A stretch of 64,000 nt of DNA from Shigella phage Sf17: the sequence record MF327004; one strand, written 5' to 3'. This document shows, one piece after another, positions 19,791-21,537 of this stretch. How positions within the stretch are numbered: the first letter of the stretch is position 1; each line of letters opens with the position of its first letter. A program made the translations under genes and the position numbers. The notes beneath the pieces were generated by a model. It was given only the letters and a program-made list of their open reading frames with translations. It was not told the DNA's origin and did no database searches.

Positions 19791-19906
19791 AACTACCTCC
19801 TATATAAAATTTTGTATACATTTGAGTATAAAAATAAGCTATAACACCTGACTTGTCAACAGATTTTATAGCTTATTTGGCAGATTTTTTATAAGGCTAC
19901 TGCCAT

Positions 19907-19965
19907 CCTTCCGCACCCGACCTGACCTCGCCCAACCTTACCTGACTGAACCACACCCGACCAAA
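19907..19965. repeat. phased pentanucleotide (NNACC)n tract 1
   Basis: About 11 consecutive in-phase pentamers, + strand nearly G-free; left flank GGCTACTGCCATCC. Confidence 0.7.
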
Positions 19966-20004
19966 CATCACTTAAAAACCCTTTTCAAAGACTCTTAAGT
20001 GATG
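19966..20004. other. hairpin A (CATCACTTAA - 19 nt - TTAAGTGATG)
   Basis: Perfect 10-bp inverted repeat capping tract 1; second copy at 21499-21537. Confidence 0.6.
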
Positions 20005-20033
20005 TAATCGAATTTTTATGTAGCTCCGATTAA

Positions 20034-20084
20034 CTACCCATACCTAACCCCACCTTGCCACACCGAACCAGACCAAACCCAGCC
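20034..20084. repeat. phased pentanucleotide (NNACC)n tract 2
   Basis: About 10 in-phase pentamers (ctacc catac ctaac cccac ...); left flank GTAGCTCCGATTAACTACCC. Confidence 0.7.
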
Positions 20085-20104
20085 TCATTAAAAGACCCTT
20101 TTAA

Positions 20105-20136
20105 AGACCTTTTAAAAAGGAGCCTCCGAAGAGGCT
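20105..20136 (-). terminator. rho-independent terminator of - strand cassette (UUCG-tetraloop hairpin)
   Basis: On - strand: AGCCTC-TTCG-GAGGCT followed by CCTTTTTAAAAGG, 12 nt downstream of the stop of ORF 20148-20588. Confidence 0.5.
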
Positions 20137-20147
20137 ACCTAGTCAAC

Positions 20148-20588
20148 TTAGAAAGGTTTTCTACGTTGCTTGTTAATGTTAGCTTTCATGGCAGCTAAAT
20201 GGTTTTGCTGTTCAATCAGTCGTGAACGTTCTTGATGACTAAGTACCATAGTGTTCACATTCTCAATCGCTTGAGTGGCTTGTTTTAAAGCACGACCAAT
20301 CTTACTAGACATTTTACGTTTTGCAATAGTTGCTTGATGTTTAGGTTCCACCACACGATAACCAACACCCATTGAAGTGACCAGATAAATCTTCTCTTCT
20401 TTAAGAAGCTTCTCAATAAACTTCTCAAGTCGATTTAGGCGTGTAAGTGCGTAAGCTTTCATTTCATCTTCGTACTTAACAATGTCACCTTGATAAGTCG
20501 GCTTCACAATACCTAAGAAGGTGTCCATCTCAGAGTGTGATACAGTATCACCGTAACTGAACTTTGCTGCTAATGCTTTTGTATTCAT
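20148..20588 (-). CDS. hypothetical protein
   Basis: 146-aa ORF, ATG at 20586-20588, basic C-terminus (NKQRRKPF); no recognisable motif. Confidence 0.45.
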   Translation of the reverse strand: MNTKALAAKFSYGDTVSHSEMDTFLGIVKPTYQGDIVKYEDEMKAYALTRLNRLEKFIEKLLKEEKIYLVTSMGVGYRVVEPKHQATIAKRKMSSKIGRALKQATQAIENVNTMVLSHQERSRLIEQQNHLAAMKANINKQRRKPF

Positions 20589-20590
20589 AA

Positions 20591-21178
20591 TTAAACATTA
20601 CCTTCTGAAATAACTTCTACAGAAAAACGACCAAAGCGTGGACGCCAATCACCTACACCACAAAGGTTGCCAGCATTTTCCAGAACCATCAAGAGTTCTT
20701 CTTTGGTAATTTGTTCTTCATCGAACATCAAACCAAACTCTACAGACCAGTCACGGAAGATTGGACGGTAGCTCATAACTCGTGCTGTGCCAATCTTAAC
20801 AGACTTCGCATAGATAAAGTCTTGGTTCTTAGCTAGTTCTTGTGGGTTTGCTGGACAGTTCTTAATAGTCATTGGGAAGACTACATCTGTCAGCATAATG
20901 GCTCGGTCAATTACCTTACCAAGTTTGTTGAGTTTTGCACCAGACTTGATACAAGCCTCAATCATCTCACCGTTCATAACAAAACCTAGTTGCTCGTCGT
21001 AGTAACAAGAGGTTACCAGTTGACTCTCTGCTAAGAGAGCGTAGTCTTCGTCAGTCTTTTTACGTTTACTAGACAGAGACTTGTGATACTTTGTCAGAGG
21101 ATTTAATGGGTCTGACAGAGTATCAGCATGGCTCAGGAAAGGACGAGTGCCAGTGATTTTGATATTTAACAGTTTCAT
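20591..21178 (-). CDS. hypothetical protein
   Basis: ORF-track start 21193 is GTG; ATG at 21176-21178 with GGAG 9 nt upstream is more likely; about 195 aa; no recognisable motif. Confidence 0.45.
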
Positions 21179-21284
21179 AGCATTTAGCTCCACACTTTAG
21201 TTGATTGTTAAGTTGTTTGTAAAGAACCCTCAACAGAAGACTCTTTAGAAACTTGGTAGATTTTTAACGTGGCTACTACCATCC

Positions 21285-21346
21285 ACCCTTACCTCACTTT
21301 ACCTAACCTGACCTTACCAGACCCAACCGGACACTACCCTACCTAG
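21285..21346. repeat. phased pentanucleotide (ACCNN)n tract 3
   Basis: In-phase pentamers accta acctg acctt accag accca accgg acact accct accta; left flank GGCTACTACCATCC. Confidence 0.7.
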
Positions 21347-21417
21347 CGAAACCTCATTAAAAGACCCTTTTAAAGACCTTTTAAAAAGGTGAGTCTCATT
21401 TTAATGTAGCTGAGACT

Positions 21418-21497
21418 AACTACCCTCACCAAACCGGACCAGACCCAACCCAGCCATACCAGACCATACCACACCCAACCGAACCGAACCTTACCGA
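21418..21497. repeat. phased pentanucleotide (NNACC)n tract 4
   Basis: 15 consecutive in-phase pentamers taccc tcacc aaacc ggacc agacc caacc cagcc atacc agacc atacc acacc caacc gaacc gaacc ttacc. Confidence 0.75.
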
Positions 21498-21498
21498 G

Positions 21499-21537
21499 CA
21501 TCACTTAAAAACCCTCTTAAAAGACTCTTAAGTGATG
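21499..21537. other. hairpin A, second copy
   Basis: CATCACTTAA - 19 nt - TTAAGTGATG, near-identical to 19966-20004. Confidence 0.6.

Follow-up and report, generated by a model that had tools for sequence, protein, structure and literature searches.

What function do the pentanucleotide repeats serve that flank two small genes in the genome of Shigella phage Sf17? The repeats lie in a 64,000-nucleotide stretch of sequence record MF327004 (the whole stretch is termed the window below), where the original prediction had noticed four tracts around a two-gene cassette. Our analysis identifies this locus, at 19830-21595 on the minus strand, with a probability of about 95% as a type II VIPR (Viral Interference Programmable Repeat) system of a Felix O1-like phage. 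Two guide-RNA genes are followed by the genes vipr and vap and then by two further guide-RNA genes, all located on the minus strand. We make this assignment because the cassette protein Vipr adjoins similar tracts in unrelated viruses and is identical at 193 of 195 residues to PDB 36pp, the 'SUSP1 Vipr protein'. With such a near-identical protein of solved structure, the locus is already known in kind and adds no new principle. Shigella phage Sf18 shares 99.9% identity with the locus region, and many Felixounavirus (Felix O1-like) phages, including SUSP2 and wV8, share 89-96%.

VIPR, a form of RNA-guided DNA silencing, was first described in 2026 in two preprints (bioRxiv 10.64898/2026.04.26.720920; 10.64898/2026.04.26.720927). 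According to these preprints, the system consists of Vipr, the accessory gene vap and guide RNAs (vrRNAs), each made up of 9-16 YNNGG repeats and a conserved 3' tail. Vipr is reported to assemble into a helical filament, one protomer to each repeat, in which each GGY is sequestered and the third repeat base is held by a purine-excluding pocket. The NN dinucleotides pair with double-stranded DNA, every third target base being skipped, and the resulting R-loop triplex represses transcription. In the SUSP1 clade the majority of guides are described as aiming at a satellite phage in E. coli genomes, with the skipped base at the codon wobble position in most targets. The same preprints report this locus type and these satellite targets for SUSP1, for which expression, co-purification and repression experiments were done, and propose that VIPR is older than CRISPR (10.64898/2026.04.26.720920,.720927).

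Both strands of the window were scanned for GG in strict 5-nucleotide phase over at least six units, one miss being allowed. All runs found were on the minus strand, at 21421-21495 (15 of 15 units), 21284-21353 (11 of 14), 20035-20084 (10 of 10) and 19908-19962 (10 of 11), and no further run in this phase was detected on either strand. These coordinates agree within a few bases with the four exactly phased tracts seen earlier around the two genes. A repeat logo was built from 930 pentamers belonging to 70 unique tracts of relatives. Position 1 is G (0.80), T (0.13) or A (0.07), position 2 is G (0.98) and position 3 is T (0.88) or C (0.12) and never a purine; positions 4 and 5 carry 0.04-0.07 bit and are near genome composition. 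C occupies position 4 in 18% of 790 internal pentamers, which is not above genome composition, and GGTAA is the most frequent pentamer. Identical neighbouring pentamers were observed 43 times, with 39 expected, ruling out a microsatellite that arose by slippage. Since the logo shows this pattern and identical adjacent pentamers are not in excess, selection keeps G-G-pyrimidine at five-base intervals and leaves the spacers free; the repeat pattern is far above chance and under selection. The logo agrees with the published structural description, including the purine-excluding Y pocket. The statement that the plus strand is almost free of G could not be upheld, as minus-strand C amounts to 9% overall and the NN positions have a normal C content.

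As had been proposed, the tracts are non-coding because stop codons interrupt the frames at varying points, both in the tracts of the window and in those of three relatives; a coding reading was dropped on these grounds and in view of the frequent GGTAA, and start codons are located at the ends of the 5' elements. A tRNA and tmRNA gene search of the window returned no gene, in agreement with the view that the tracts are not tRNA-like, and the covariance models of Rfam 15 gave no match in the window at gathering thresholds.

The two open reading frames between the tracts proved real and both run on the minus strand, from 21178 to 20591 and from 20588 to 20148. The first, vipr (20591-21178), encodes a RAMP-fold protein of 195 amino acids for which guide-RNA binding is predicted by homology. 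A family profile search matched one solved structure, PDB 36pp chain D (E = 5e-81), and the residues published as contacts to G1, G2 and Y3 are kept in the window protein (H17, R138, D177, W178, R179, E71, M72 and C173). An AlphaFold (AF2) model of Vipr, with a predicted local distance difference test score (pLDDT) of 94, is predicted to share its fold with the RAMP proteins Csm3, Cas7 and Cas6, which a fold search returned. It conforms to the Vipr type of the SUSP1 clade, a minimal RAMP protein that has an RRM core, a G-loop and a thumb. The family comprises 519 matches, none of them named and none with a Pfam domain, and has an invariant C-terminal glycine-rich motif (G-loop), which is present in the window protein. 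The second gene, directly after vipr (20148-20588; 146 amino acids), probably encodes the Vipr-accessory protein Vap, whose presumed DNA-binding function is taken over from the preprint. By tblastn it accompanies vipr in 21 of 21 vipr-positive relatives, L012 among them, and Vap does not have the wide spread across unrelated viruses that Vipr has. Pfam holds no family for either protein, and PHROGs lists them under 'unknown function' only (Vap as PHROG 5926).

At the locus, no repeat-spacer array was found, and the cassette consists of only two genes, neither with a Pfam or PADLOC Cas family. PADLOC returned nothing for the proteins of the window, and one distant Vipr homolog gave a weak match to Cas6 (E 0.022). 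The earlier verdict 'not CRISPR' is thus literally true because spacers and cas genes are absent; it needs qualification in that the RAMP fold of the protein is also found in Cas7, Csm3 and Cas6.

Tracts of the same kind were then sought outside the Felixounaviruses by scanning IMG/VR with the pattern (GGTNN)6GGT and setting plain microsatellites aside. Tracts of this kind with variable NN, often as tandem arrays, are present at no fewer than 60 loci of unrelated viral contigs. A Vipr homolog is encoded at at least 32 of 60 unrelated loci and, in every case checked, is the immediate same-strand neighbour of the tracts. The proposal that the tracts belong with the cassette and act on the minus (GGTNN) strand is borne out. 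Array styles differ between contigs (L038-L041, which are one 189-kb contig, L034, L151, L141, L131, L133, L150, L124, L125, L135 and L094). In some contigs tandem tracts of 9-13 pentamers, each closing in GGCAG or GGCTA, follow one another without spacers; L125 has a GC-rich array of mostly GGC with up to 42 units, L094 a single uninterrupted run of 44 units, and a jumbo-sized contig carries more than 10 separate tracts.

Read along the minus strand, the Sf17 locus begins with a predicted strong sigma-70-type promoter (TTGACA-16-TATACT, 11 of 12 matches; 21568-21595) upstream of the first vrRNA unit. Directly 5' of vrRNA-4 lies the element termed hairpin A (copy 2, CATCACTTAAGAGTCTTTTAAGAGGGTTTTTAAGTGATG, 21499-21537), which is near-invariant among relatives. 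The 15 GGYNN units of vrRNA-4 (21421-21495; NN = TC AA TC TC TG GT AT CT AT TG TG CT CC TT GA) run into a 3' tail of type F2 (21383-21425), with the pseudoknot GUAG/CUAC plus AGUCUCA/UGAGACU followed by a U run, so that it is also terminator-like. vrRNA-3 is preceded by 5' element B (TTTTTAAAAGGTCTTTAAAAGGGTCTTTTAATGAGG, 21352-21387), which is related in sequence to hairpin A, and has 13 units (21287-21351; NN = TT TA AG AG CC TG CT AA CA TA AA GA AA) and a tail of type F1b (21255-21288; GUGG/CCAC plus GGUAG/CUACC), the type that is shared by the vrRNAs of the E. coli satellites described below. After vap, the minus-strand terminator noted earlier was recovered by a terminator scan at 20136-20121 (AGCCTC-TTCG-GAGGCT plus T run, 20114-20136). 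A second copy of element B (20083-20118) leads to the nine units of vrRNA-2 (20038-20082; NN = TG TT CT TC GT AA GG TA AT), whose tail (20005-20039) is the F2 variant AAUCGGA/UUCGAUU. Copy 1 of hairpin A (19966-20004) stands 5' of vrRNA-1 with its 11 units (19911-19965; NN = TT CG GT TC CA AA TG GA CA CG GC) and a tail of type F1a (19879-19912; AAGG/CCUU plus GGCAG/CUGCC). The last element is a putative terminator hairpin, AAATAAGCTATAA...TTATAGCTTATTTTT (19830-19878), which was read from the sequence and not called by the terminator scan; inside it, a predicted promoter-like site (TTGACA-17-TATTTT) faces a downstream signal-peptide gene.

Both copies of hairpin A, near-identical to each other, were present as described, and so were the shared flanks, GGCTACTRCCATCC at 19895-19908 and 21272-21285 and GTAGCTNNGANTAACTACCC at 20021-20040 and 21407-21426. 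On the transcribed strand these 'left flanks' are the pseudoknotted 3' tails of the vrRNAs. Nine tail variants from phages and satellites fit one H-type pseudoknot, in which a 4-bp stem is combined with a 5-7-bp stem formed from the loop of the first. Of 11 pairs, 9 show compensatory changes; pairing holds in 88% of cells and drops to 28-42% when the partners are slid. Hairpin A was correctly seen and wrongly placed as a cap; it lies 5' of each tract, and the conserved 3' cap is the former left flank. Both hairpin A and the AT-rich element B stand 5' of the repeats, contain about three direct TTAARAGGG repeats spaced 11-13 nucleotides apart and are absent from satellite vrRNAs. The preprint text consulted does not mention these conserved elements, which could determine the formation of vrRNA 5' ends; a leader, a processing site or a promoter are candidate roles for hairpin A. 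Repeated AT-rich motifs resembling the 5' elements (AAAGGGAGTCTATTAAG and similar) also occur in another intergenic region, at 27157-27178 on the minus strand and in the DNA next to it. The suggestion of a structured, GU-rich RNA had pointed in the right direction, the actual RNA being the guide RNA of the published VIPR system.

What these guides recognise was approached through E. coli. The locus was compared by BLAST with 5,426 complete E. coli genomes, and a match of about 90 nucleotides covering tract plus tail was found in 144 of the 5,426 chromosomes. Nine of these satellite loci (L152-L160) were fetched. Where intact, the satellite is an island of about 11 kb (e.g. L156, 2410-13000), and several copies are disrupted by insertion sequences. 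Besides small unnamed genes, it encodes a large serine recombinase and an HNH endonuclease and has genes for baseplate and tape-measure proteins. It carries a single vrRNA with a phage-type tail, equipped with its own consensus promoter, leader hairpin and terminator, and vipr is absent. At least three insertion sites are used (the DUF72 gene near yecN, wrbA-ymdF and tonB-yciI). The satellite guides gave no match above background against the helper-phage window.

Targets were scanned with the NN list of each guide under the rule that one base is skipped after every two, and 100 shuffles of the NN dinucleotide order served as controls. vrRNA-1 matches at 22 of 22 positions in the serine recombinase gene of L156 (2860-2891) and L158 and at 21 of 22 in L160, the shuffle maximum being 17 of 22; its predicted target is TTCCGTGTTTCTCAGAAATGGGAGCAACGTGC. 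vrRNA-2 matches another allele of the recombinase than vrRNA-1, with 17 of 18 positions in L153 (2997-3022) and 16 of 18 in L157 (2497-2522), which none of the 100 shuffles reached, and TGTTTGCTATCTGTAAATGGCTAAAC as the predicted sequence. For vrRNA-4, 26 of 30 positions agree in a small unnamed gene of L156 (9637-9680) and 23-25 of 30 in five further islands; none of 100 shuffles scored as high in the five islands tested. In the targets of vrRNA-1 and vrRNA-4 it is the wobble position of the codon that is skipped. With skips of 0, 2 or 3 nucleotides only background was obtained (0.60-0.78), showing that the matches arise under the one-nucleotide skip only. Among 68 unique guides of the whole family, a match of at least 80% was obtained for 41 (3 when shuffled) and of at least 85% for 37 (0 when shuffled). 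No self-target was found in the 64-kb window, where the best values of 0.63-0.72 equal those of shuffled controls (the remaining 26 kb or so of the genome lay outside the scan). Two alleles of the satellite recombinase and a small gene of the satellite can thus be named as concrete targets for Sf17.

By analogy with the published system, Vipr protomers would polymerise along the vrRNA, one per GGYNN repeat, and bury the GGY. The exposed NN dinucleotides would pair with double-stranded DNA, two bases being read and one skipped, and the R-loop triplex formed at the target would block transcription, whereby the phage would silence a satellite that parasitises it. The former idea of a protein-binding array holds as far as protein binding is concerned, the binder being identified as Vipr; phasing by half a helical turn of double-stranded DNA explains nothing that needs explaining. 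VIPR is a newly reported way in which RNA reads DNA, through a gapped code borne by the variable bases of repeated pentamers. The present results are an independent confirmation from sequence analysis with guides not previously analysed as such: no data of the preprints were needed to arrive at the logo, the 5-nucleotide steps, the link of the protein with the repeats, the skip-1 rule or the satellite targets.

No evidence that contradicts the VIPR assignment was found. It does have several gaps. The best match of vrRNA-3 in the nine satellites, 17 of 26, equals the shuffled background, and its ten central dinucleotides have no exact match in IMG/VR. In the target of vrRNA-2, which lies in the recombinase reading frame, codon position 1 is skipped and not the wobble position. 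Promoter and terminator sequence matches are the sole indications that the Sf17 vrRNAs would be expressed, and the mechanism as applied here would stand or fall with two preprints that are not peer reviewed. Finally, some relatives have intact-looking guide genes and lack vipr within 6 kb.

These relatives were found among 29 related loci, which were taken from IMG/VR and anchored on the neighbouring DNA ligase gene. One or two such orphan vrRNA units lie downstream of the ligase gene, with vipr and vap absent within 6 kb, in L009, L019, L030, L010, L024, L028, L029 and L031. The units look intact in L009 (7378-7583), L019 (7200-7405) and L030 (7201-7395) and are decaying in L024 and L031; three of the intact-looking units match satellite genes at 0.87-0.91. 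We regard it as possible, if unlikely, that guide-RNA genes circulate without the protein and that orphans are loaded in trans by Vipr from a co-infecting phage or helper. If so, vrRNAs would be protein-free, exchangeable 'guide-only' weapons or decoys in the conflict between phage and satellite.

The tracts of the relatives are always on the coding strand and downstream of the ligase gene, and their number is 0, 1, 2, 4 or 5. The minimal arrangement comprises promoter, hairpin A, a single tract, the conserved 3' flank, terminator and gene. In 95 extracted units the distance from 5' element to 3' flank was 48, 53, 58, 63, 68, 73, 78, 83, 88 or 98 nucleotides, and in 84 of the 95 the spacing was congruent to 3 modulo 5, so that length shifts in 5-nucleotide steps. 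Tract identity is only 70-80% between phages whose genes are about 90% identical, and the amino acid identity of Vipr is 97-100% across Felixounaviruses whose guides share 70-80% nucleotide identity. Judged from these alignments, Vipr is frozen while the guides turn over quickly. The tract region has matches in 229 phage records of GenBank, only 128 of which encode Vipr. A Felixounavirus-type vipr (99.5% identical) with tract region was also seen in GU169904.1 (91679-92498), which is labelled Staphylococcus phage SA1 and, from its sequence, looks like a chimeric or contaminated assembly.

A different function of the repeats has to be weighed against these data. The original prediction had favoured, among others, a replication origin or primase-loading zone, in which transcription from the promoter displaces the G-rich strand and the primase-helicase primes at GGGTC or TGGTC. 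A strong promoter does lie upstream, a protein with Toprim and DnaB-type domains is encoded at 29519-31510 on the plus strand, and the surroundings consist of replication genes, with the DNA ligase gene adjoining the locus. T7-type primase sites, (G/T)GGTC, however, require C after GGT, and this model fails because that base is unconstrained, with C at the 18% given above, and because the locus is dispensable among relatives, close ones having no locus or a single decaying unit. Moreover, the tracts travel with the RAMP protein and not with replication genes in unrelated viruses, and the NN positions hold target information. We consider an origin highly improbable. An attenuator resembling TRAP deserves only marginally more credit and is likewise very improbable. 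Here an oligomer would bind GGU triplets in a leader and control both a terminator overlapping the last repeats and the downstream gene (19410-19790). The order of promoter, repeats, terminator and gene would suit this model, the last repeats form the 5' arm of the F2 terminator, and the 5-nucleotide period equals the spacing of TRAP sites, which consists of a triplet plus two bases. However, the binder has been identified as Vipr, there are also tandem units and units on the downstream side of the cassette, and the agreement of the NN positions with foreign DNA greatly exceeds that of shuffles, which an attenuator would not need.

In principle, repeats of the form (GGN3)n are able to fold into two-tetrad quadruplexes, and G-quadruplex or i-motif DNA, or an RNA of this kind, that would act in its own right in structure or regulation is a further reading. 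Such structures are not needed to explain the locus: position 3 is never a purine, so that selection is on G-G-pyrimidine and not on GG alone, and T or A at position 1 in 20% of the units would break the tetrads. In the electron cryomicroscopy (cryo-EM) preprint, moreover, the protein is reported to hold each GGY, and we give the quadruplex hypothesis almost no weight. The proposal that the repeated flanks are recombination substrates that drive gain and loss of the cassette is of another type, since it would be a secondary role compatible with guide-RNA function. Relatives vary in the presence of the cassette and in the number of units, and near-identical 5' elements and tails stand on both sides of it. 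Recombination leaves the GGY selection, the 5-nucleotide steps and the target matches unexplained and would be at most a by-product of repeated sequence; we rate it as quite improbable. RNA polymerase pause sites, plus-strand Rho-utilisation sites, an analogy to R-loop switch regions and Chi sites were each rejected, as none accounts for the information content of the NN positions.

Compared with known systems, the VIPR locus of Sf17 is closest to the type II VIPR of SUSP1. Both have the Vipr protein with 193 of 195 residues identical, an adjoining vap, vrRNAs of 9-16 repeats with a pseudoknotted tail on both sides of the two genes and skip-1 matches to the same kind of E. coli satellite. The guides are arranged as 1 + 3 in SUSP1, whereas two lie upstream and two downstream in Sf17, and the guide sequences differ; the Sf17 locus is known from its sequence alone, and one of its guides has no matched target. 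Class 1 CRISPR-Cas complexes, in which Cas7 or Csm3 assembles on crRNA, likewise use the RAMP fold with a glycine-rich loop, place one protomer per fixed number of guide nucleotides and flip bases periodically. Their period is 6 nucleotides with one base flipped, whereas that of VIPR is 5 with three buried. VIPR guide information is also non-contiguous and phage-encoded, and comes without a repeat-spacer array, cas1/cas2 or other cas genes. TRAP shares the principle of a triplet, in its case (G/U)AG, plus a two-base spacer repeated in RNA, with one subunit per repeat and 9-15 repeats. Its spacers, however, are uninformative and its output is attenuation, whereas in VIPR the information resides in the spacers and DNA is recognised as the output, and the proteins are unrelated. 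In type III toxin-antitoxin systems (ToxIN) a protein gene also stands beside a tandem-repeat non-coding RNA that binds the protein, but ToxI consists of identical 36-nucleotide units cut by the toxin, whereas VIPR has variable pentamers and a RAMP fold instead of the ToxN fold.

The tracts have received little annotation so far. They are unannotated in the GenBank records of relatives, except for wV8, where a 58-bp direct repeat 'DR_4' is given, and ASO1B, which has predicted promoters and terminators; the genome papers of Felix O1 and UAB_Phi87 do not mention them. In two of the three relatives that have no tract (L005 and L017, the two inspected), a strong TTGACA-N17-TATACT promoter directly drives the next gene. 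In Sf17, an inverted repeat of 8-10 bp (GGTGAGTA...TACTCACC; 21543-21582, minus strand) brackets the -10 box and the start site of the strong promoter. The VIPR-less relatives have differing yet pairing inverted repeats, CTTAGTGGGT/ACCCACTAG (L005, about 7193-7242) and CCTGACGGGT/ACCCGTCAGG (L017, about 7273-7326). The pairing points to a hairpin conserved in read-through RNA or to an operator-like element.

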